Shown: piece by piece, positions 2 through 22,690 of the stretch | How positions within the stretch are numbered: the stretch's first letter is position 1 | Layout: every line of letters starts with the position of its first letter | Assembly (NCBI GenBank): GCA_031441465.1 | Contig: JANOEP010000051.1 | Span: forward strand, 1-26,908 | From: a bacterium | Lineage (GTDB): Bacteria; Krumholzibacteriota; Krumholzibacteriia; LZORAL124-64-63 | Reading direction: 5' to 3' | Length of the DNA stretch: 26,908 nucleotides | Program-made: the position numbers and the translations under genes | The notes under the pieces: model-generated | Database searches by the model: none | What the model saw: the letters and a program-made list of their open reading frames with translations, nothing else | What the model was told of the DNA's origin: nothing

Positions 2-517
2 GAATACTGCGCTGGTTAATTTCGCATCGGCCACGGCTTTGGGCATGCCGTAAACCACGCTGGTTGATTCATCTTGTGAGATAACCACGCCGCCGCCCTC
101 GACCACTTCGCGCGCACCGCGCGCACCATCGGCCCCCAAACCCGTAAGCACCACCGCCAATAATTTATCGTTATAAATTTTGGCAAGGCTACGAAACATG
201 GGGTCAGCCGAGGGGCGGCAGAAATTTTCGGGCGGGTTTTGGTTAAGCTTCATGCGGCATGGGCCGGCGCCACTGCGCACCGCCGACATGTGATAATCAC
301 CCGGCGCGAGATAAATAACCCCACCGCGCACCTCTTCGTCTTCCACCGCTTCGTGGCAATCCAGCCCCGAGGCTTTGCTGATATGATCGGCCAAAATAGC
401 GGTAAAATTAGGCGGCATGTGCTGCGTAATGAACATGGGAACGCGCAATTTTTTTCCCTTAAACTCACGAAAAATATGGAGCAATGCTTGTGGCCCACCC
501 GTTGAGCAGGCAATGGC
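2..517 (-). CDS. cheB: Chemotaxis methylesterase CheB, catalytic domain only (cut at ~517, runs off the window at position 1)
   Basis: My minus-strand translation: [16 protein letters not shown]...[19 protein letters not shown]...[10 protein letters not shown]...[18 protein letters not shown]...[16 protein letters not shown]...[19 protein letters not shown]. The Ser (STGG), His (QHMP) and Asp (GADG) triad motifs are intact. There is no stop in 172 codons. Absent from the ORF track. Confidence 0.95.
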
Positions 518-1404
<887 letters not shown>

Positions 1405-1408
<4 letters not shown>

Positions 1409-2301
1409 CCACGGCGCCCATCTCGCCGGCTGAGTTCGCGGCGCTGGGTCGTCTGGACCTCATCGCGCGCCTGGTCGTCGAGGGCTTCCTGGTCGGCCTG
1501 CACCGCAGCCCCTACCACGGGTTCTCGTCGGAGTTCGCCGAGTACCGCGCCTGCTTCCCCGGCGAGCCGGTCACCCACGTCGACTGGCGCGTCTACGCCA
1601 AGAGCGACCGCCTCTACCGGAAGGTCTTCAGCGAGGAGACCAACCTGCGGGCCACGCTGCTGGTCGACTGCTCGGCCAGCATGGGCTACGGCTCGGACGC
1701 GGCCCGGCCGACGAAGCTGGCCTACGCGCGGCTGCTCGCGGCCAGCTTGGCGCGCCTGCTGCTGCGCCAGAACGACGCCGTCGGCTTGGAGCTGTTCGAC
1801 AACCGCCGACTGGGGTCGGTGCCGGCCCGCGCCGTCCGCCGGCAGCTCTTCGAGATCCTCAAGCACCTGGACGACCTGCCGGCCGGCCGGGAAACCGCCC
1901 TCGGCCCCGTCCTGCACGAGGTGGCCGAGCGGCTGCCGCGGCGCGGGCTGGTGGTGCTGATCTCGGACCTGATGGACGCGACGGCGGACGTCACCGCGGG
2001 CCTGCGCCACTTCCGCCACCGCGGGCACGAAGTGATCGTCTTCCAGGTGCTGGACCCGCGCGAACTCGACCTGGACTTCAAGGGCGAGGCGCGCTTCCGG
2101 GATCTGGAGCGGCCCGAACGCACGCTGCGCCTGGAGCCGGCCCACGCCCGCGCGGCTTACCGCGAGCGGCTCGAGGCGTGGCGCGGCGAGGTGCGCCAGG
2201 CGTGCCGTCGCGAGCGCATCGACCTGGTCGAGACGACGACCGACACCCCTTTCGACCGCGCCCTGCTTGCGTACCTTTCCAAGCGGCGCCGGCTGGCCTG
2301 A
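1405..2301 (+). CDS. DUF58 / vWA-type protein of MoxR operons
   Basis: GTG at 1405 overlaps the moxR stop (GTGA). Motifs [40 protein letters not shown] (MIDAS-like), VVLISD. The ORF-track start at 484 is spurious. Confidence 0.92.
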
Positions 2302-2316
2302 TCGGAGCATGACGAC

Positions 2317-4449
2317 GTGCCGCTGACCTTCTTGAACCCGGGCCTGCTGTTCGGCGCCGCGGCCGCGGCCGTGCCGCTGCTGCTGCACCTGCTGCAGCGG
2401 CGGCGCGTGCGCGAGATCGCCTTCAGCGACCTGCGCTTCCTCGAGGAAGTGAAGGCGCGGCGCTCGCGCGCCCTCGGCGTGCGGCGCTGGCTGCTGCTGC
2501 TGCTGCGGATGCTGGCGATCCTGCTGATCGTCGCCGCGGCGGCCCGCCCGCGGCTGGGCGGCCGGGACGCCGCGACGACGGCCCCGGCGGCGCTGCTGGT
2601 GGTGCTGGACGCCAGCGCGAGCATGCGCACCGAGCAGGACCGGGGCACGCGCTTCGACGCCGCCCTCGCCGCCGCGACGGACGCCGTGACCGCGTTGCCG
2701 TCCGGGGGCGTGGTCCAGGTCGTGCTCGCGGGACCGCGCCCCCGCGCCGTGTTCAACGGCTGGACCGGCGCCGGCGCCGGGGCGGCGTCGGCCCTGCGCG
2801 CCGTCGCGCCCACCGACGGCGCCGGCGATCCCGCGGCCGCGCTCGCGGAGGCCGCGGCCTGGGTCGCCGTCTCGCCGCAGCGGCCGGTGACGGTGCTGCT
2901 GATCTCGGACCTGCAGGCCGTCGCGTGGGACGACGCCGCGCTCGCCGCCGCGGCGCGGGCCCTGGCCGAGGCGGGCGGGGCGAGGCTGGCGCTGCTGCCG
3001 GTGGGGGAACCGCAGGTCGCCGGCGGCGTCACGCGGATCCGCACGCCGTTGCGGGCGCTGCGGGCCGGCGAACCCGTGCAGGTCGAGGCCGACGTGCGCG
3101 TCGGTCATGTCGGCCAGGTGTGGCGTCTGGAACTCGACGGCCGCCTCGTGGCCGAAGCGGCGAGCGCGGCGGCGCCGGGGGAGACCGACCGTTTGACCTT
3201 CGCCTTCGCCGCGCCGGCCGCCGGGCTGCACCGCGGCCTCGTCGCCACCGCGGCCGACCGCTTCCCCGTGGACGACGCGCGCCCCTTCCTGCTCGAGGTC
3301 CGCGACCGTCTCGAGGTGCTGATCGTCCACGGCCCCGGCGCCGGGGCGGCCGGACGCGGCGGCTGGCGCTACTGGGCCAACGCCCTGGCGCCGGGAGGCG
3401 GCGAGGCCGGCGCCGACGAACTCTACAGCGTGAGCGATCGCGTCGTCGCCGACGTGGTCGACGGCGACCTGGTCGGGGCCGACGTGGTCCTGCTGGTGGA
3501 TCCGGGTCCGCTCGGTCGGCGCCTGCAGGACGCGGTCGTCGAGCGATTGGCGCGCGACGGCGGCGTGGCCCTGTTCGCGGGCGACTCGGCCGACGCCGAG
3601 GAACTGGGGCGGACGCTGCTGCCGGCGCTGGGACTGGCCGGACCCATGTCCTACCGCGCCCACGGCCCTGCCGGCGCGCAGGAGGCCGTGGTGGTCGCGC
3701 CGGCGCACCCGGTCTTCGACGGTCTGCCTGCCGAGGCGCTGACCACGCTGGCGCGCGCCACCTGGCGGCGCTACTACGCCCTGCCCGACTCGGGCTGCGA
3801 CGTGCTGCTCGCGACACGAGGCGGGGACCCGCTGCTGGCTCTGGCGCGGCGCGCGCGGGGACGGTTGCTGATCGCGCCCTTCCACACGCTGCCCGACGCC
3901 ACCGATCTGGCCCACAATCCGATGTTCCCGCCCTTGGCCCGGCGTCTGGCGGCTTATCTGGCCGGCGGCGGCCGGGGCGTCGCGGACGAGGTCGGCGCCG
4001 CGCCGGCGATCGCGCTGGCCGGCGCCGCGGACGGCGAGGACGCGAATGCCGGCGATGTGCTGGCCGGGCCGTTCCTGCTCTTCCGCACGCGGCCCGGCGT
4101 GCCCGCCGAGGTCCTGCCCGCCCGCCTCGGCTGGCGGGGCGGGCGCGCGTTCGTGGCGGGAGAACCCGTGCCGCGCCAGGGCTTCTACACCTTCGTCGCG
4201 GGGACGGACACGCTGGGCGACGCGGTCCTGGCGGCGCCGGCGGCCGAAGGCGACGCGGTGCTGTTGACCGCCGCCGAAGCCGCGGCGCGGTTGGCGGCGG
4301 CGGGGCTGCCGGACGCCGAAGTCCTCGCCACGACGCCGGACGGCGGGATCGCCGCCGGCGCGGACGGCCGCGAACTCGCGCCCTGGCTGCTGGGCCTCGC
4401 CGCGCTGATCCTGCTGGCCGAGACGAGGTTGTCCCGCCGCGCCGCTTGA
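2317..4449 (+). CDS. BatA-like N-terminal double-TM domain + vWA domain membrane protein
   Basis: N-terminus FLNPGLLFGAAAAAVPLLLHLLQRRR...FSDLRFL...LLLLLRMLAILLIVAAAARP. MIDAS LDASASM and LISD. C-terminal TM ELAPWLLGLAALILLAETRL. GGAG 9 nt upstream of GTG. Confidence 0.85.
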   Translation: MPLTFLNPGLLFGAAAAAVPLLLHLLQRRRVREIAFSDLRFLEEVKARRSRALGVRRWLLLLLRMLAILLIVAAAARPRLGGRDAATTAPAALLVVLDASASMRTEQDRGTRFDAALAAATDAVTALPSGGVVQVVLAGPRPRAVFNGWTGAGAGAASALRAVAPTDGAGDPAAALAEAAAWVAVSPQRPVTVLLISDLQAVAWDDAALAAAARALAEAGGARLALLPVGEPQVAGGVTRIRTPLRALRAGEPVQVEADVRVGHVGQVWRLELDGRLVAEAASAAAPGETDRLTFAFAAPAAGLHRGLVATAADRFPVDDARPFLLEVRDRLEVLIVHGPGAGAAGRGGWRYWANALAPGGGEAGADELYSVSDRVVADVVDGDLVGADVVLLVDPGPLGRRLQDAVVERLARDGGVALFAGDSADAEELGRTLLPALGLAGPMSYRAHGPAGAQEAVVVAPAHPVFDGLPAEALTTLARATWRRYYALPDSGCDVLLATRGGDPLLALARRARGRLLIAPFHTLPDATDLAHNPMFPPLARRLAAYLAGGGRGVADEVGAAPAIALAGAADGEDANAGDVLAGPFLLFRTRPGVPAEVLPARLGWRGGRAFVAGEPVPRQGFYTFVAGTDTLGDAVLAAPAAEGDAVLLTAAEAAARLAAAGLPDAEVLATTPDGGIAAGADGRELAPWLLGLAALILLAETRLSRRAA

Positions 4450-15737: not shown

Positions 15738-16541
15738 TTGTTCACCGACACCCACCTGCACCTGGACCGCCGCGAGTTCGCCGGCGAGATCGACGCGGTC
15801 CTGGCCAGGGCGCGTCTCGCCGGCGTCACGCGCCTGATCAACATCGGCTACGATCTGCCCAGCAGCGAGGCGTCGTTGGCGCTGGCCCGGGGCGACGACC
15901 GGCTGCGGGCCGCAGTCGGCGTCCACCCGCACGACGCGCTGGTGATCGCCGACGCGGGCGGGGAGATCACGCCAGCCGGCGAGCGCGCCCTGGCGCGCCT
16001 GGCCGAGCTGGCCGCCGACCTGCGCGTGGTGGCGATCGGCGAGATCGGCCTGGATTTCTACCGCGACCTGTCGCCGCGCCCGGCACAACGCGCCGCGCTG
16101 CGGGCCCAGCTCGCGCTGGCCGCGCGCCTCGAGCTGCCGGTGGTGCTGCACGTGCGCGACGCCCACGACGACATCGTCGCCGAACTCGAGGACGCCGGCG
16201 TGCCGGCGCGGGGCGGCATCCTGCACAGTTTCACCGGCGGGGCCGGGCACGCCGCCTGGGGCGTGGCGCACGGGTTCCTGCTGGGGATCGGCGGCCCGGT
16301 GACGTACCGCAACAGCGGCTTGCCGGAGGTCCTGGCCGGCGTCGCGGTGGAACATCTGGTCCTGGAGACCGACGCGCCCTGGCTGCCGCCGGTGCCGCAC
16401 CGCGGCGGCCGCAACGAACCCGCCTTCCTGCCGCTGACGGCGGCCCGCGTCGCGGAGATCTACGGGATCGCGGCGCCGGAGCTGGCGCGCATCACCGGGG
16501 CGAATGTCGATCGCCTGTGCGGCGTGCGGGGGTGGGCGTGA
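15738..16541 (+). CDS. tatD: TatD-family metal-dependent hydrolase/DNase
   Basis: DTHLHL, VGVHPH, AIGEIGLD, VLHVRDA, ILHSFTG, LETDAPWL, RNEP. TTG start after GGAGG. Confidence 0.93.
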   Translation: MFTDTHLHLDRREFAGEIDAVLARARLAGVTRLINIGYDLPSSEASLALARGDDRLRAAVGVHPHDALVIADAGGEITPAGERALARLAELAADLRVVAIGEIGLDFYRDLSPRPAQRAALRAQLALAARLELPVVLHVRDAHDDIVAELEDAGVPARGGILHSFTGGAGHAAWGVAHGFLLGIGGPVTYRNSGLPEVLAGVAVEHLVLETDAPWLPPVPHRGGRNEPAFLPLTAARVAEIYGIAAPELARITGANVDRLCGVRGWA

Positions 16542-17389
16542 GCGAGCCTCTCAACCGCAGCCAGCTCGAACTGCTGCGCGCCCACGACATCCGCCCGGTC
16601 AAGCGCCGGGGTCAGAATTTCCTGCTGGACGGGAACCTGGCGCGGGCCATCGCGGCCGACTGCCTGGAACTGGGAGCGGACGTCCTGGAACTCGGGGCCG
16701 GGGGCGGGGCGTTGACATTCCCGTTGCTGGAGGCCGGGGCGCAGGTGACCGCGGTCGAGGTCGACCGGCACCTTTGCGACCTGCTGCGCGCCGAAACGGC
16801 CGGACGGGAACGATTCCGGCTGGTGGAGGCCGATATCGCGCGTTTGGACTGGTCTGCGGTCCTGGACCTGGCCGGTCCCCGGCCGGTGGTGGCCGGGAAC
16901 CTGCCCTACGTCCTGACCAGCGAGGTGCTGTTCGCGCTCATCGACCACCGCCGGCGCGTGGCCGGGGCGGTGTTCATGATCCAGCGCGAGGTGGCCGCGC
17001 GGCTGGCCGCCGGGCCGGGCAGCAAGGAGTACGGCGTGCTGGCGGTGGTGCTCGGGGCGCTGTTCGCGGTGGACGTGCGCCGGCAGGTGCCGGCGGCGGT
17101 GTTCTGGCCGCGGCCCGACGTCGTGTCGGCCGTGGTCGTGTTGCGCCCGCTGCCGGGGGACTGGGACGACGCGGAGCTGGCGCGTTTCAAGGCCCTGGTC
17201 AAGGGTCTCTTCCAGCAACGGCGCAAGCGCACCGCCACCGTCCTGCGCTCGCTGTGCGGCACCGACGAGGCGACCGCGGCCGGCTGGTGCCGCGCCGCGG
17301 GCGTGGACCCCGACGCGCGGCCCGAACAGGCGTCGCGCGAGGCCCTGCGCGAACTGGCCCGGATCATCCCCAGGGAGGACGAACGTTGA
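16538..17389 (+). CDS. rsmA: 16S rRNA adenine dimethyltransferase
   Basis: GQNFL, LELGAGGGALT, VEVD, VAGNLPY, MIQREVAARL, FQQRRK. GTG 16538 overlaps the tatD stop. Confidence 0.95.
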   Translation: MSEPLNRSQLELLRAHDIRPVKRRGQNFLLDGNLARAIAADCLELGADVLELGAGGGALTFPLLEAGAQVTAVEVDRHLCDLLRAETAGRERFRLVEADIARLDWSAVLDLAGPRPVVAGNLPYVLTSEVLFALIDHRRRVAGAVFMIQREVAARLAAGPGSKEYGVLAVVLGALFAVDVRRQVPAAVFWPRPDVVSAVVVLRPLPGDWDDAELARFKALVKGLFQQRRKRTATVLRSLCGTDEATAAGWCRAAGVDPDARPEQASREALRELARIIPREDER

Positions 17390-19452
17390 GGTGCAGGCCG
17401 GGACAGGGGATCGCCGCGGCGCTGGCGCTGTGCTGGCTGCTCGCCGCCGCGGCCGGCGCGGCGCAGGAAGCCGACGAGGACACGACCGGTTCGGCCGCGG
17501 CGGACAGCGCGGCCGCCGCCGGCGGCACACCGGCCCTGAACGAGTTGCAGCGCCTGTTGGCCGAAGCCCGGGCCGCCGCGGCGGACACCACCCTCGCCGG
17601 TCGCCCGCCCTTCCTGATGCGCTGGCAGCGGACGGCCAAGGGCACGGTGCGGGCCCAGATGCAGAAGGTCGACTGGGAGGCCGGCCTGACCAACAATTTC
17701 GCGCTGCGCGACATGAGCACCGTCGGTCTCACCCTGGACAAGGCGCACGAGGACTACCGTTCGCAGGAGAAGGTCGTCGACCGCCGCAACGGGTCGCTCG
17801 CCTACGCCACCGATTCCCAGCGGAGTCTGATGGGTACCCTCTCGCTGGCCCAGAACTGGAGCCGCGACGAGGTCACCAACACCACGGGCCTGACCAACGC
17901 CAACGAGCGCGACGTGCGCACGGCCAACGCCACGGTCCAGCGCCAGGATCTGGGCCTGTTCGGGGCGTTGCACAACGTCCATGTCCGCGGCACCTTCACC
18001 GAGCAGCAGGCCGAGCAGCTCGGCATGCGCAACGACATCTCCGAGGGCCAGCTCGACGGGGCGTTGCGCTCCAGGATCGCGGCCGGCGACTGGCTCGTTC
18101 TGCAGACCGGCCTGTACGGTGCGTCCCAGAGCGGCGAGCGCTCCCTGGGCCTGCAGACGAACCCCTCGAGCACCAGCGGCGACACCCTGCGCGTCGGCGC
18201 CCACTACGATCGCGGCGCCTGGCGCGGCGGGTTCACCGTGGCGAGTTCGAACTTCGACAAGCGCTACCTCGACTACCGCCGCAACGCCAACGGCATCGTC
18301 GACACCATCGGCGTCGACGAGAAGATCGTGCAGGAACTCGAGAGCGACGACGCGGTGACCCTCACCTGGGACAACGCCCTGCGCGTGTGGGGCGTGAGCT
18401 TCGGGGCCAAACTGGCCCGGGACATGTCGCAGAACGGCTTCCGGGCCAGCGGCATCGGCACGCGGGAGCGCCACCAGGACCGCGCCAACTTCGATCTGGG
18501 TTTCCGGCCTACCCGGCTGGACTCGGTCCAGTTCCAGTACAGCTACCTGTGGAAGTGGGACGACCAGAGGTTCAAGGGCGCCACCAGCTCGCGCGGCCGC
18601 CAGATCTCGGAGTCCCGCGACTTCAAGTTCAACTGGGTCCACGACCTGTTCCGGCACACCGACCTGAGGCTGGCCTTCGCGACGGGACTGTCGCAGGAGA
18701 TCGCCGAGCGCATGTTCAACCAGAACGACCGCGACCGGCTCGAGACCTCCCTGAACATCAAGGTCGACACGACGTTCGACAACAACTTCAAGGTGAACCT
18801 GGCCTTCGACGCCCGGCACATCGAGGACATCTCGATCCGGCGCGAGCGGTCGGCCAACAACAGCGTGAAGGACACCTACGAAGTCGCTCCCGGCTACTCC
18901 TGGCCGGTCGCGCCCTGGCTGGAGCTGGCCCAGAGTTTCCGCGTCTGGATCCAGTACTCGGACTACGTCTATTCCGATTACGAGGGCATCGACAAGCAGG
19001 ACGACTACAACAAACGCGGCAACCTGAACACCCGGGTGTCGTTCAAGGTGAGCAGCCGCCTGCGCGTGACCCTGCGCCACGACTACAACGCCAAGTCCAA
19101 CGCCAAGAAGTCGGCCTCCGACGCCCTCGGCCGCTCGTTCTACAGCCGCGAGCAGATCCAGGACGTCTCGAAGGTCGACGTCAGCCTGACCTACAAGCCG
19201 ACCCCCTGGTTGACCCTGGACGGCACCACTTACCAGTCGCGCGACTACAAGGAAACCTACGGCGCGCGCGATACCGAGAGCGAGCGCTTCAGCGGCCAGG
19301 TGAGCGTGGGCGGGCAGATCGATCTGTCCAACAAGGACGACTCGCTCACCCTGAAGGCCGGCGTCCACCGGTTCTTCGCCCACGGCCCGAGCGTCCAGGC
19401 CTACAACAGCGAGTACTGGGATGCCGACATCCAGGTGAGCTGGAGGTTTTGA
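17386..19452 (+). CDS. Large predicted outer-membrane beta-barrel protein of unknown function (688 aa)
   Basis: TTG overlaps the rsmA stop, with GGAGG 7 nt upstream. Hydrophobic signal ends AGA-AQE. About 590 aa of alternating-polarity strands (e.g. SVQFQYSYLWKWD, FKVNLAFDARH, LRVTLRHDYN). C-terminal beta-signal DIQVSWRF. Confidence 0.8.
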   Translation: MRCRPGQGIAAALALCWLLAAAAGAAQEADEDTTGSAAADSAAAAGGTPALNELQRLLAEARAAAADTTLAGRPPFLMRWQRTAKGTVRAQMQKVDWEAGLTNNFALRDMSTVGLTLDKAHEDYRSQEKVVDRRNGSLAYATDSQRSLMGTLSLAQNWSRDEVTNTTGLTNANERDVRTANATVQRQDLGLFGALHNVHVRGTFTEQQAEQLGMRNDISEGQLDGALRSRIAAGDWLVLQTGLYGASQSGERSLGLQTNPSSTSGDTLRVGAHYDRGAWRGGFTVASSNFDKRYLDYRRNANGIVDTIGVDEKIVQELESDDAVTLTWDNALRVWGVSFGAKLARDMSQNGFRASGIGTRERHQDRANFDLGFRPTRLDSVQFQYSYLWKWDDQRFKGATSSRGRQISESRDFKFNWVHDLFRHTDLRLAFATGLSQEIAERMFNQNDRDRLETSLNIKVDTTFDNNFKVNLAFDARHIEDISIRRERSANNSVKDTYEVAPGYSWPVAPWLELAQSFRVWIQYSDYVYSDYEGIDKQDDYNKRGNLNTRVSFKVSSRLRVTLRHDYNAKSNAKKSASDALGRSFYSREQIQDVSKVDVSLTYKPTPWLTLDGTTYQSRDYKETYGARDTESERFSGQVSVGGQIDLSNKDDSLTLKAGVHRFFAHGPSVQAYNSEYWDADIQVSWRF

Positions 19453-20075
19453 TGACCCACTATCGCCGCGGCTCATTTCTTGCTATAATGATCTTGTCCC
19501 TGGGCCTGATCCCCGCGCTGGGGGGGTGCCTGTTCGAGCCCCGGGACGCCGAGGACCCGTCGGGCGGTTCGATCACGTACCTGGACCAGTCGCAGCCCGA
19601 AAATGTCCTGGCGAACCTGGAAACGGCGTTCCAGAACAAGGATGCCGCCGGCTACGAGCGCCAGATCGCCACAGAGTTCAGCTACGAGCCGGACGCGGAC
19701 ACCCAGGCGTCGTACCCGGATGTGGATTGGTCGACCTGGAACCGGGACACCGAAATCGCGTTCATCCAGAACTTCTTCAACAACGTGGACGGGATCACGG
19801 CGAATCTGAACGAAGTGGTGATCCAGGGTGAATGGGACGGGTCGACGGCGGATCTGCGCTACATCTACGCGGTTACGGTGACCGAGAGCGGCGGGGCGGT
19901 GCCCTACCGGGCCAGCGTCACCTTGAATTTCCGGCTCGACGGCACGTTCTGGGTCCTGTCGCGCTGGTTCGATGAGCAGGGGGAGCAGGATCCCCAGTCC
20001 CAGACCCCGCTGCCCACGCTGGGGCAACGGCGGGGTGCCTTCGCCGCATCAGGAGGTGGCCGAGCGAGCGGTTGA
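19452..20075 (+). CDS. Lipoprotein A (207 aa), hypothetical, possibly NTF2/SnoaL-like fold
   Basis: ATG overlaps the barrel stop (TGATG). SD GGAGG at 19442-19446. Lipobox LGGC at residue 26, followed by LFEPRDAEDP. Buried in the 17391..20075 track ORF. Confidence 0.85.
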   Translation: MTHYRRGSFLAIMILSLGLIPALGGCLFEPRDAEDPSGGSITYLDQSQPENVLANLETAFQNKDAAGYERQIATEFSYEPDADTQASYPDVDWSTWNRDTEIAFIQNFFNNVDGITANLNEVVIQGEWDGSTADLRYIYAVTVTESGGAVPYRASVTLNFRLDGTFWVLSRWFDEQGEQDPQSQTPLPTLGQRRGAFAASGGGRASG

Positions 20076-20087
20076 TATGCTATGATC
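20072..20087 (+). promoter_or_regulatory. Extended -10 promoter candidate TTGATATGCTATGATC for lipoprotein B
   Basis: TG-c-TATGAT. 14/16 identical to the element at 20906-20921. Confidence 0.65.
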
Positions 20088-20189
20088 CGTCCCTACATCG
20101 AATGACGATCCGCCTCGCCTCGTGCGGGGGTCGACGGCGAAGAGCCTACGGCGCGCCGATGCGCCATCCGAGATGTGGAGGTGACCAAC

Positions 20190-20801
20190 ATGCGAAGCCA
20201 CACCAGATTCCTTTCCTGCCTGACCGCCTTGGCGGCCCTGGTCGTGATGGCCGGGGGCTGCATCTTCTCGCCCGACGAGGGGGGCGATCCGCCAATTGTC
20301 GTCGTGACGTACCCGTTCCCGGACACGGCCGAGAAGCTCATGACGAACTTCAAGAACGCGTACGGCACCATGAACGTCGACGAGTACCGCAACGCGCTGC
20401 ACACGGGCTACATCTTCGTGTTCGCCGACGGCAGCCCCGTGGCGCCCACGACCGGCATCTACACGCGCGAGGAGGACCTGCAGTCCACCACGCGCATGTT
20501 CAACGGCGACCAGGGGCAGGACCCGGACGGTCAGCCCAAGCCCGGCGTGCGTGACATCGAGTTCACCGAACTGCTGCGCCTGACCGACTGGGAGGACGTG
20601 CCGGAGACGGACGTCTACTTCCCGGGCGCCATCCGCGCCCTGTTCGACGTGCGGGTCGTGTTCTACCTGAACACCGAGTCGACGAACACCATCACGGTTG
20701 ATTCGCAGCAGCTGTTCTACCTGAAGTCCATCTCCGAAGTGCAGCCGGACGACAGCACCAAGCTGCACTTCTACCTGATCGGGCAGCAGGACCTCGACTA
20801 G
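20190..20801 (+). CDS. Lipoprotein B (203 aa), hypothetical
   Basis: SD GGAGGTG at 20177-20183. Lipobox AGGC at residue 24. Close paralog of 20990..21604. Confidence 0.9.
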   Translation: MRSHTRFLSCLTALAALVVMAGGCIFSPDEGGDPPIVVVTYPFPDTAEKLMTNFKNAYGTMNVDEYRNALHTGYIFVFADGSPVAPTTGIYTREEDLQSTTRMFNGDQGQDPDGQPKPGVRDIEFTELLRLTDWEDVPETDVYFPGAIRALFDVRVVFYLNTESTNTITVDSQQLFYLKSISEVQPDDSTKLHFYLIGQQDLD

Positions 20802-20830
20802 ACGCACGCCCCGCGGCGTGCCGATCACGG

Positions 20831-20859
20831 GGAGGGGCGCGCGGCGCCCCTCCTTTTTT
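20831..20859 (+). terminator. Intrinsic terminator after lipoprotein B
   Basis: GGAGGGGCGC-gcg-GCGCCCCTCC followed by T6. Confidence 0.9.
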
Positions 20860-20905
20860 CTTGCTGCCGGCTCCGGGGTCGGCTCCCGGGCTGGCCTGCG
20901 CGCGA

Positions 20906-20921
20906 TTGATATGGTAGGATC
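20906..20921 (+). promoter_or_regulatory. Extended -10 promoter candidate TTGATATGGTAGGATC for lipoprotein C
   Basis: TG-g-TAGGAT. Lies between the upstream terminator and the SD. 14/16 identical to 20072-20087. Confidence 0.65.
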
Positions 20922-20989
20922 GATTCCATTCCGAAACCGATCGTTCACCCCGCGCGATGCGCACCCAACCCGTGGCGGAGGTTCCTTCC

Positions 20990-21604
20990 ATGCGACGTCC
21001 CACGACGAGCCTGTCCGGCCTGGTCACCGCGATCGCACTGATCGCACTGACCGGCGGCTGCTTCAACTCGAACGATCCCGTGGACACGGATCCGCCGCCG
21101 GACGCCTACCCGTTCCCGGACACCGCCGAGCAGCTCATGACGAACTTCAAGGACGCCTACGGCGGCATGAACATCGACGAGTACGACAACGTGCTGCACG
21201 AGGACTTCCTCTTCGTGTTCGCCGACGGCAGCCCCGTGGCGCCCACGAACGGCGTCTACACGCGCGAGGAGGACCTGCAGTCCACCACCCGTATGTTCAA
21301 CGGCGATCAGGGGCAGGACGAGGAAGGTGTCGTGAAGCCCGGCGTGCGCGACATCGAGTTCACCCAGCTTGAGCGCCAGACCGACTGGGAGGAGGTGCCC
21401 GGTGACGACCTCCATTTTGCCGGCGCCCGGCGCGCCCTGTTCGATGTGCGGGTCGTGTTCTACCTGAATACCGAGTCGACGAACACGATCACGATCGACT
21501 GCCAGCAGCTCTTCTACGTGACGTCCGTGGCCGAAGAGCAGGCGGGCGGCGGCACCCGGCAGCACTTCTACCTGATCGGGCAGCACGATCTCGATTCGAA
21601 GTAA
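20990..21604 (+). CDS. Lipoprotein C (204 aa), hypothetical
   Basis: SD GGAGGT at 20977-20982. Lipobox TGGC at residue 24. Paralog of lipoprotein B. Confidence 0.9.
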   Translation: MRRPTTSLSGLVTAIALIALTGGCFNSNDPVDTDPPPDAYPFPDTAEQLMTNFKDAYGGMNIDEYDNVLHEDFLFVFADGSPVAPTNGVYTREEDLQSTTRMFNGDQGQDEEGVVKPGVRDIEFTQLERQTDWEEVPGDDLHFAGARRALFDVRVVFYLNTESTNTITIDCQQLFYVTSVAEEQAGGGTRQHFYLIGQHDLDSK

Positions 21605-21627
21605 GACCGCGCCGTCCGCGCGGGTCG

Positions 21628-21653
21628 AGGGGGGGGCGCCGCGCCCCCCCTTT
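21628..21653 (+). terminator. Terminator-like hairpin after lipoprotein C
   Basis: GGGGGGGCG-ccg-CGCCCCCCC then TTT. The U-tract is short. Confidence 0.7.
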
Positions 21654-21691: not shown

Positions 21692-22690
21692 ATGCTGCCA
21701 GCCGCCATGAAAACATGCCGCCACGAACGGCGTTCGGCCCCGGCCCCGGCTTCCCTCCGGACGCTCCTGCTGATCGTCGTGATCGGCCTGGCCGGCTGCG
21801 GCCCCTCCGAGCCCGATCGCAACGCGAAACCGGCCGCGCGGCGGTCCCGGCCCGCGGCGGCGCCGCCCGTTCCGGCGCCGCCCGCGCCCCGGACGTCGTT
21901 GTTGACCGACCTGCTCGGCTCCCTGGACACCCCGACGATCGCGATCGTCGTCGACGACTGGGGCCACCGGCGCGACGCCACGACCCGCGGCTTCGCCGAG
22001 CTGGATTTCCCGCTGACCTTCTCCATCCTGCCGGGCCTGCGCTTCTCCCGCCAGGACGCCCTGCAGGCGACGCCGCTGGCGCTGCCGGAACAGGCCCCCG
22101 GGGGCGAGGCCGCCGGCCCGCCGCCGCACCGTCGCCGCGAGATCATGCTGCACCTGCCGATGGAGCCCGAGGGATTCCCCGACCAGGATCCGGGACCCGA
22201 CCCGTTGCGGGTCGGCATGGACCGCGGGCGCGTCGCCGCGATCCTCGATGCCGCGCTGGCGGGTGTGCCGGGCGCGCGCGGTCTCAACAACCACATGGGC
22301 AGCGCCGCCACCGCCGACACCGCGCTGATGTCGGCGCTGGCCGACGAGCTGTCCGCGCGCGGGATGTTCTTCCTGGACAGCCTGACGACGCCCCGCTCGG
22401 TCGCGGCCCGGCAGATGCGCGCCGTCGCGGTGCCGACGCTGGTCAACCGCATCTTCCTGGACCAGAGCGTCACGAACCGCGAGCAGGTCCGCGAGCTGCT
22501 CGCCCGGCTGGTCAAGTCGGCGCGGGCGCGGGGCGCCGCGGTGGGCCTCTGCCATCCCTATCCCGAGACGCTGGCGATCCTGCGCGAGGAGTTGCCGCGC
22601 CTGCGGGACGAAGGGCTGCGGATGGTGACCGTGTCGGAGCTGCTGGCGCTCGAGGCGGCCCGTCGCGCTGCGGCCGAGACGTTGCCATGA
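21692..22690 (+). CDS. Divergent polysaccharide deacetylase (YibQ-like), probable lipoprotein
   Basis: IAIVVDDWG, LTFSILP, EIMLHLPMEP, GLNNHMGS, FFLDSLT, RIFLD, GLCHPYPET. Hydrophobic segment ends LAGC. Start is 21692 or 21707. Confidence 0.88.
   Translation: MLPAAMKTCRHERRSAPAPASLRTLLLIVVIGLAGCGPSEPDRNAKPAARRSRPAAAPPVPAPPAPRTSLLTDLLGSLDTPTIAIVVDDWGHRRDATTRGFAELDFPLTFSILPGLRFSRQDALQATPLALPEQAPGGEAAGPPPHRRREIMLHLPMEPEGFPDQDPGPDPLRVGMDRGRVAAILDAALAGVPGARGLNNHMGSAATADTALMSALADELSARGMFFLDSLTTPRSVAARQMRAVAVPTLVNRIFLDQSVTNREQVRELLARLVKSARARGAAVGLCHPYPETLAILREELPRLRDEGLRMVTVSELLALEAARRAAAETLP

Follow-up and report, generated by a model that had tools for sequence, protein, structure and literature searches.

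A Krumholzibacteriota outer-membrane module predicted to hold a lipoprotein inside a barrel of about 28 strands, distinct from LptD/LptE

Large outer-membrane barrels that work with a lipoprotein partner are known from several systems. LptD/LptE has a very wide barrel of 26 or 27 strands with the lipoprotein in its lumen, and LptD also carries a jellyroll (PF03968, with PF04453 or PF19838). In SusC-SusD, BtuB-BtuG and XusA-XusB, the lipoprotein caps a large barrel at its loop-side mouth; SusC-type systems have a plug, a TonB box and 22 strands, and the SusD partner has a tetratricopeptide repeat (TPR)-like fold. Pairing of a barrel gene with a lipoprotein gene, as in the SusC-SusD type, is typical of the Fibrobacterota-Chlorobiota-Bacteroidota (FCB) group. 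The accessible text of a preprint describes an expanded lipopolysaccharide (LPS) translocon in Bacteroidota, whose accessory barrels have 22 and 8 strands and which also includes several lipoproteins; an N-terminal region of ~100 residues fills LptN's own 22-strand barrel, and conservation in other FCB phyla extends to LptP and LptT but not to LptN (10.64898/2026.10.03.756453). Here we describe a module from the phylum Krumholzibacteriota (assembly GCA_031441465.1, contig JANOEP010000051.1) that consists of a barrel gene followed by genes for lipoproteins A, B and C. The stretch of DNA analysed, hereafter the window, is a complete 26.9-kb contig (26,908 nucleotides; C51) with ~72% G+C; the assembly to which it belongs measures 3.49 Mb and has a completeness of 96.8%. 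In identifiers, C denotes a contig, L a fetched locus and G000 the host genome. A preliminary description made from the sequence alone had proposed a new barrel and lipoprotein machine, with A as core plug or partner and B and C as interchangeable variants or exported cargo. Structure prediction and gene order support the proposal for A, and they separate the module from the LptD/LptE of the same genome.

The 688-aa barrel protein was modelled with AlphaFold2 (AF2) from its own alignment. The model has a mean predicted local distance difference test (pLDDT) score of 88.7 and a predicted template modelling (pTM) score of 0.73, and its strands span residues 77-687. DSSP lists 29 strand elements in this span; elements 493-500 and 503-509 are counted as one bulged strand, which gives 28 strands. 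Parity supports the count, since with 28 strands all modelled contacts of A lie on one side of the barrel, and this no longer holds if the bulged strand is split into two. Ahead of the barrel come the signal peptide, a disordered tail and a single helix (residues 49-66), and only ~75 residues of the model are non-barrel. Modelling had been named in the preliminary description as the check between barrel and non-barrel, and it returned, with high model confidence, a plug-less barrel of about 28 strands. The sequence has the same layout, with a hydrophobic signal-like segment at the N-terminus (...AAALALCWLLAAAAGAAQ), a ~50-residue tail rich in Ala, Asp, Ser and Thr that holds the helix, the ~28 strands, and the end S-W-R-F. 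The signal peptide and terminal W-x-F first read from the translation are therefore both present.

The barrel was compared with known families by sequence. It matched 0 Pfam families, and the sole NCBIfam row was TIGR04565 (E 0.046), far under the cut-off. There was no match among PDB sequences, either with the single protein or with a 46-sequence profile. When the 46 members of the family alignment were searched against Pfam at E up to 1, a family was matched by two members at most, as with OMP_b-brl, below its cut-off; none of the 46 matched PF04453 or PF19838. Neither the barrel nor these members had a Pfam match to Slam/DUF560 (PF04575), Omp85 (PF01103) or MtrB/PioB, and none of 30 distant barrel relatives reached a Pfam cut-off. 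An exhaustive phmmer search found 86 barrel clusters in 1.84 billion representatives, including full-length relatives that are 16-28% identical to the barrel in our own alignment. A cluster look-up for 10 distant homologues returned no taxon names, only "hypothetical protein". The nearest clusters in the ESM Atlas are unnamed barrels of 620-700 aa, and their commonest labels are Bacteroidota or Cloacimonadota, which serve as leads only. Judged by these searches, the barrel matches no named family, and the barrel-lipoprotein module is of no described kind. The absence of a TonB plug, POTRA or OstA/LptD domain noted in the preliminary description was borne out by Pfam and by the small non-barrel part of the model, and a full-length match to a characterised family was found neither in Pfam, NCBIfam and PDB sequences nor in the structure searches.

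Structure searches used Foldseek and VIA, which is independent of Foldseek. The best overlay was with MtrB of MtrCAB (6r2q_B), at Foldseek E 1.4e-10 and TM-score (TM) 0.42, and at VIA Z 16.0 with 448 aligned residues and a root-mean-square deviation (rmsd) of 7.5. Like MtrB, the barrel is wide and is predicted to sheathe a partner protein; the overlay is partial, however, with 8-9% identity, and the module has no CxxCH motif or adjoining cytochrome gene. Many TonB-dependent transporters rank after MtrB as generic partial overlays with TM about 0.3. LptD chains rank about 44-48 in VIA, under MtrB and many of these transporters (Z 11.1, 416 aligned, rmsd 8.3; Z 10.6, 427 aligned, rmsd 8.3). The matches to the modelled barrel look like generic partial barrel overlays with no family standing out, which is no proof of a new fold. 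An MtrB-like electron conduit was considered and rejected, because there are no haem motifs, no cytochrome neighbours and no MtrB/PioB match in Pfam. The translations of A, B and C contain no CxxCH haem motif, and no cytochrome gene was seen beside the module in the Pfam scan of the window.

One model was made of three chains, each supplied with its alignment: the barrel (residues 55-688) and the mature forms of B and A. The scored partner was A. The interface score (ipSAE) between A and the barrel was 0.77, 0.76 and 0.79 (median 0.77); the highest value among three controls was 0.00. Between the runs, 80% or more of the contacts are shared, and partner pLDDT is 82 or higher. The ipSAE mark used is reached by 116 of 157 solved complexes and by 2 of 215 mismatched pairs, counts that are only a rough guide for a three-chain model built on our own alignments. 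On the barrel, the interface takes in 92 residues between strand 3 and the last loop, which would place A in the lumen or mouth and not against the outside wall. Forty-three of these residues are in loops, all after odd-numbered strands, and none are in turns after even-numbered strands; 48 of the 49 in-strand residues are in the strand half nearer the contacted loops. On the side of A, the interface includes segment 27-43 and parts of the C-terminal tail. Of the 32 barrel residues that are invariant or almost so, 11 fall in the interface, compared with ~4.6 expected (hypergeometric p 0.003). The model supports binding of A to the barrel, and A is predicted to fill the loop-side half of the lumen. 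In standard outer-membrane protein topology, the loop side of a barrel is extracellular. The N-terminal tail follows the signal peptide and would thus be periplasmic, so under this topology the side contacted by A would be extracellular.

One genome per species was used in a first scan, which gave 21 loci; most are labelled Krumholzibacteriia or "bacterium", and a few carry other metagenome-assembled genome (MAG) labels though they are 80-88% identical to the window. A second set of 14 loci came from seven other families of the phylum, in which the barrel is ~18-25% identical by BLASTP or is found by profile only. Two of the 21 loci end inside the barrel and were excluded from downstream counts. 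Lipoprotein A directly follows the barrel in every locus with downstream DNA (19/19 and 14/14, 33/33 in all), and a B-type gene follows A in 32/33 (19/19 and 13/14). In loci with enough upstream DNA, rsmA is directly upstream of the barrel (16/16 and 14/14). Among loci that extend far enough, the yibQ gene comes after the lipoproteins in 16/16 and 12/14; L034 is without it, and L035 ends at a contig end. The gene order recurs in 35 related loci, which is more than chance, and persists to a barrel identity of ~20-25%, and the gene-neighbourhood survey asked for in the preliminary description found barrel and lipoproteins together. The barrel profile matched 187 of 201 genomes sampled across the phylum, including 121 of the 125 of high quality, and 76 of 80 genera; most of the genomes gave a single match.

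The number of B-type genes is variable. Among the 21 loci, a second copy like C is present only in the closest relatives (L007, L010 and L011). Of the 14 distant loci, ten have a single copy, one has two, two have three and one lacks any. The homologues of B and C in L011 (8781-10185) are split over several reading frames, likely by indel errors, as the contig name suggests a long-read assembly. The extra tandem B-type copies in L032, L033 and L036 mostly start with C-[SG]-D-[DE] and not C-I-[FL]-x-P; such an acidic post-cysteine start resembles the surface-lipoprotein export signal of Bacteroidota. A hidden third lipoprotein was considered for the stretch of 700-900 nt that separates B from yibQ in distant loci, and no convincing open reading frame was found. 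Most simply, this space would be a longer N-terminal part of the yibQ homologue.

Bacterial lipoproteins are recognised by a lipobox that ends in the lipidated cysteine. A, B and C each have a hydrophobic segment followed by a G-G-C lipobox, in which the G and C are invariant in the alignments of the A and B families (A2 and A3, respectively). All three carry the lipoprotein signature, and lipidation is predicted. B and C are 67% identical. BLASTP aligns A with B at the N-terminus only (24% over 79 residues); comparison of the family profiles gives an hhalign probability of 98% (E 2e-13) over 106 columns, which include the signal peptides and reach into the domain. By profile, A and B are remote homologues, and the three lipoproteins behind the barrel are related as first proposed.

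The AF2 model of B (pLDDT 88.0) has three helices and a curved sheet. Foldseek matched it to nuclear transport factor 2 (NTF2)-like, SnoaL, ketosteroid-isomerase (KSI) and limonene-epoxide-hydrolase (LEH) chains (E about 4e-5 to 2e-4, target TM 0.5-0.64), and B is predicted to have an NTF2-like fold. In the B alignment, 1 of 31 members matches an NTF2-like Pfam family. Members of the A family have weak matches to DUF4440 (PF14534; 10 of 31, best E 1.7e-5) and SnoaL_3 (PF13474; 6 of 31). A of the window is below the curated cut-offs for both (DUF4440 19.6 compared with 25.2 bits; SnoaL_3 18.4 compared with 22). Homologues of A are called "nuclear transport factor 2 family protein" by some sources; those of B are all "hypothetical". 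These weak family matches, together with the profile match to B, suggest that A is also NTF2-like. Within the NTF2-like superfamily, to which B would belong by fold and A by weak matches, the two differ by being lipid-anchored and by having conserved N- and C-terminal segments that may serve in docking.

The alignments define these segments. In A the post-cysteine segment is C-[LIF]-F-x-P-R..E.P, with F28, P30, R31 and P36 invariant in A2. Its C-terminal tail is L-P-T-L-G-Q-R-R-G-A-F (G-x-[LR]-R-G), with G191, R194 and G195 invariant and F197 nearly so. In B the post-cysteine segment is C-I-F-S-P-[DE] in A3, and the motifs of both proteins are kept in the most distant families of the phylum. 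A rough six-frame heuristic screen of the whole genome found C-[ILVF]-F-x-P in 2 of 187 candidate lipoproteins, A and B. The motif thus does not act as a general sorting signal. C starts with C-F-N-S-N-D and has lost the B-type motif; it is a recent, lineage-specific duplicate of B. The preliminary description had offered interchangeable variants as one option for B and C. B is more than such a variant of C, because it is the conserved second gene and shares its post-cysteine motif with A, and C is a lineage-specific copy without it.

A fourth B-type paralogue is encoded elsewhere in the genome (G000:C10:96250-96936; L028:6251-6937), bringing the host total of A/B-type genes to four. It is 43-44% identical to B and C, is unlinked to any barrel and starts with C-F-D-P-E-D. 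By eye from translations, it adjoins two divergently oriented genes, one apparently for a polytopic membrane protein and the other for a Fe-S-like protein rich in Cys, and it lies upstream of an apparent serine hydrolase or beta-lactamase gene.

The module resembles the LptD/LptE translocon in plan, and kinship with it had been hinted at in the preliminary description. The host genome has its own LptD, a 1283-aa protein (G000:C66:61847-65698; L006:48-3899) with matches to LptD_2 (PF19838, E 3.4e-50), LptD_N and OstA_2. LptD_N/OstA_2 lie near residues 50-160, a weak LptA-like match covers 215-305 and LptD_2 covers 630-993, a layout that suggests an extended periplasmic beta-jellyroll. LptE is encoded at C10:64166-64540 (PF04390, above cut-off), and LptF/G and LpxC are present. 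PF04453 had no match in the host genome; the same search found it in only 2 of 14 control genomes. The hhalign probability between the barrel profile and host LptD is 0.7%. By Pfam, the barrel has no LptD_N/OstA jellyroll (PF03968, PF13100), and its model has only the tail and helix in that place. LptD was therefore rejected as an identity for the barrel: there is no jellyroll, no PF04453 or PF19838, and the genome's own LptD is at another locus. LptE was rejected for A, B and C, which have no Pfam match to PF04390; B is predicted to be NTF2-like, and the genome's LptE is elsewhere. The module is distinct from the host LptD/LptE, and the hinted kinship was not upheld.

Comparison with other described systems gave partial likenesses. 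As in LptD/LptE, a very wide barrel is predicted to hold a lipoprotein in its lumen, is presumably assembled around it and has SurA-like and rsmA genes in its neighbourhood. It differs in having about 28 strands, NTF2-like lipoproteins, possibly two of them, and no similarity in sequence or profile. A is modelled at the loop-side mouth, as in SusC-SusD, BtuB-BtuG and XusA-XusB, whereas the barrel has neither plug nor TonB box, its partner has an NTF2 fold, and the module is single-copy in a housekeeping context. Membership among TonB-dependent transporters or SusC was rejected on the missing Pfam match, the missing plug and the count of about 28 strands compared with 22. Slam/Omp85 membership was rejected as well, since neither PF04575 nor PF01103 matches and the genome's Omp85 genes are elsewhere. 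Omp85 (PF01103) has eight above-cut-off matches on several contigs of the 3.5-Mb genome (L045-L052); one is cut by a contig end, and the gene count may be lower. LptN, compared by its description in the accessible preprint text only, is likewise an FCB-group barrel with a long N-terminal periplasmic tail that works with lipoproteins. As LptP and LptT recur in other FCB phyla, an accessory role of the barrel in the LPS translocon is conceivable. The terms "NTF2" and "28-strand" are absent from the accessible text of two preprints of October 2026 that deal with the expanded Lpt pathway of Bacteroidota (one is 10.64898/2026.10.03.756453).

Literature searches found no description of a 28-stranded outer-membrane barrel. 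By title or abstract, nothing on the module appeared in work on the outer membrane of Krumholzibacteriota, and NTF2-like lipoproteins combined with an outer-membrane barrel returned only MlaC, type IV secretion and Mce systems. MlaC is described as holding an NTF2-like domain. As far as these searches reach, the module is undescribed.

We consider it likely that the barrel has a lipoprotein inside it, as modelled. In the arrangement that we propose, a plug-less barrel of about 28 strands with NTF2-fold A in the loop-side half of its lumen would form an outer-membrane complex separate from LptD/LptE. A would be held by its domain, its post-cysteine segment (C-[LIV]-F-x-P-R..E.P) and its conserved C-terminal tail, and the post-cysteine segments would tether the lipoproteins to the barrel wall. 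B, with the sister motif C-I-F-S-P-D/E, probably resides in this barrel too, and C and the unlinked fourth copy may be recent spare copies of B. The barrel would fold around A, and probably B too, as LptD does around LptE. On balance we lean towards a core envelope complex that acts as a lipoprotein-plugged wide channel. NTF2 cups are typical holders of small molecules or lipids. The complex might be constitutive, either a gated wide channel or a carrier and hand-over site across the outer membrane, in which the NTF2 cup would hold or pass a hydrophobic or amphipathic envelope component; this transport role is put forward only tentatively.

Several points weigh against this arrangement. The support for the A-barrel interface is the model's own confidence and not a measurement, and conserved residues are not enriched on its A side (10 of 34, p 0.91). 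B was present in the model as an unscored chain and no confident A-B contact is listed, which speaks neither for nor against B; its place in the complex is suggested by synteny, by homology to A and by the sister motif. Locus L034 has A with no B-type gene or yibQ nearby. The loci are kin, so the synteny counts measure persistence over deep divergence and not independent events. The loop side is taken to face outwards from textbook topology. NTF2 folds serve many unrelated roles, which makes a lipid or hydrophobic ligand a guess.

The module could instead be a TonB-independent uptake channel on the SusC-SusD/BtuB-BtuG plan, in which A and B are lids over the outer mouth that capture a nutrient and B copies diversify with the substrate. 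The modelled place of A at the loop-side mouth would suit such lids. Variation in B-type copies (0 to 3 in the 14 distant loci, an adjacent pair in the window, L007, L010 and L011, and the unlinked fourth copy) would suit diversification, and TonB-dependent transporters with lipoprotein partners are among the barrel matches, if only as generic overlays at TM about 0.3. Yet the barrel has no plug domain and no TonB box region, and the Pfam scan of the window found no glycosidase, binding-protein or regulator gene adjoining the module. The place among housekeeping genes and the single copy in nearly every genome of the phylum speak for a core envelope role rather than for substrate-specific uptake, and we regard the uptake channel as unlikely.

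Alternatively, B and C could be cargo of a Slam-like device for export of surface lipoproteins. The variable number of B-type copies and the C-[SG]-D-[DE] start of the extra ones, which recalls the Bacteroidota export signal, are consistent with cargo. Such a device would have almost no clients, however, as the genome has four A/B-type genes and the motif occurs in two lipoproteins. The barrel has no Pfam match and hence none to Slam/DUF560 or Omp85, and the accessible text of the preprint on the Bacteroidota translocon assigns export of surface lipoproteins to the expanded LptD complex (10.64898/2026.10.03.756453). We find an export device quite improbable.

The proteins could also be neighbours only, a large general porin beside unrelated lipoproteins kept together by operon inertia. 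Each part is without an assigned function, the synteny counts come from related genomes, and a gap of ~115 nt separates A from B, all of which would fit. Against mere inertia, the barrel stop overlaps the start of A, the order is kept in 33/33 loci while barrel identity drops to about 20%, the complex score is 0.77 compared with 0.00 with conserved barrel residues enriched at the interface, and only A and B carry the post-cysteine motifs. We judge the neighbours-only reading very unlikely. Least credible, and in our view highly improbable, is a diverged second LptD/LptE pair serving as an LPS or glycolipid translocon: the shared plan of a very wide barrel holding a lipoprotein, the surA and rsmA neighbours of lptD in Proteobacteria and the LptD chains among the VIA matches (Z 11.1 and 10.6) are outweighed by the missing beta-jellyroll/OstA domain, the hhalign value against host LptD, NTF2-like rather than LptE-like lipoproteins, about 28 strands instead of 26 or 27, the low rank of the LptD matches, and the fact that holB-psp1-tatD-rsmA is a general housekeeping gene order.

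The genes of the module are embedded in a housekeeping operon (Table 1), with assignments across the window made by a Pfam scan of its proteins. The TTG start of the barrel overlaps the rsmA TGA as TTGA, with GGGAGGA a few bases upstream. The barrel TGA and the ATG of A share one base (TGATG), with a GGAGG inside the last barrel codons. The barrel is translationally coupled to rsmA on its 5' side and to A on its 3' side. Chaining to tatD-rsmA, the nearby SurA-like genes and secDF, and the overlap of barrel and A with a ribosome-binding site in the last barrel codons were all read correctly in the preliminary description. The terminator-like hairpin is immediately 3' of lipoprotein B. The YibQ-like deacetylase is a conserved downstream neighbour and, from its conservation, a candidate module member at most. 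Its N-terminus in the window resembles a lipobox (L-A-G-C), and in the yibQ homologues of most of the distant families (L029-L042) the N-terminus looks Lys/Arg-rich and is followed by a membrane anchor. At the other end of the window, a CheB methylesterase gene on the minus strand (2-1342) runs off the contig start, and DUF58 and BatA/VWA "aerotolerance" genes occupy 484-4449 on the plus strand.

Table 1. Genes and other features in and around the barrel-lipoprotein module (window positions)
Feature	Position	Strand	Basis or remark
BatA/VWA genes, nifU, nifS, mfd, holB, psp1	upstream of tatD	+	Pfam
Two SurA-like genes	~10.3-13.5 kb	+	Pfam
tatD	15738-16541	+	Pfam
rsmA, 16S rRNA adenine dimethylase	16517..17389	+	Pfam RrnaAD E 1.3e-41; stop overlaps barrel start
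Barrel, 688 aa	17386..19452	+	TTG start; translation, AF2 model
Lipoprotein A, 207 aa	19452..20075	+	Predicted; lipobox, alignment A2, complex model
Lipoprotein B, 203 aa	20190..20801	+	Predicted; lipobox, AF2 model, Foldseek
Terminator-like hairpin, 12 pairs (9 G-C), then T run	20829..20855	+	Consensus scan only
Lipoprotein C, 215 aa (204 aa if ATG at 20990)	20957..21604	+	Predicted; duplicate of B
YibQ-like divergent polysaccharide deacetylase	21692..22690	+	Pfam Polysacc_deac_2 E 9.4e-64
4Fe-4S protein	between yibQ-like gene and secDF	+	Pfam
SecD/SecF domain (secDF)	~25.7-26.5 kb	+	Pfam

In the accessible part of one report, D-[ST]-[AILMTV] is the general O-glycosylation motif of Bacteroidota (PMC12871550). 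These triplets crowd the N-terminal tail of the barrel (residues 28-76, window 17467-17613) in all 46 sequences of the barrel alignment (A1). The 3826 tail residues contain 121 of them, or 3.2 per 100, compared with 0.58 per 100 in the barrel body. At least one is present in 46/46 tails, and the observed count was reached by 0 of 500 composition-preserving shuffles. Because the tail carries this Bacteroidota motif, it may be glycosylated in this FCB-group phylum.

Single-chain outer-membrane barrels of more than 26 strands are rare. SlpA (30 strands) and SprA (36) are the only examples above 26 named in the accessible text of a preprint whose strand-count data set leaves such barrels out (10.64898/2026.03.07.710327). 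The barrel described here, with about 28 predicted strands, is near-universal and mostly single-copy across a whole phylum of uncultured organisms, and it is wired into a housekeeping operon. A bolder proposal, which we think doubtful, is that it is an LptDE-independent translocon core to Krumholzibacteriota, in which a 28-strand barrel and two NTF2-fold lipoproteins would hand a lipid or other hydrophobic molecule to the surface, and the barrel tail, rich in sequons and probably glycosylated, would extend to a partner in the periplasm or inner membrane. Should the complex of barrel and lipoprotein prove real, it would be a third lipoprotein-in-barrel architecture, after LptDE and the SusCD type, and would point to a core step of envelope biogenesis or transport, so far without assignment, in FCB-group bacteria.

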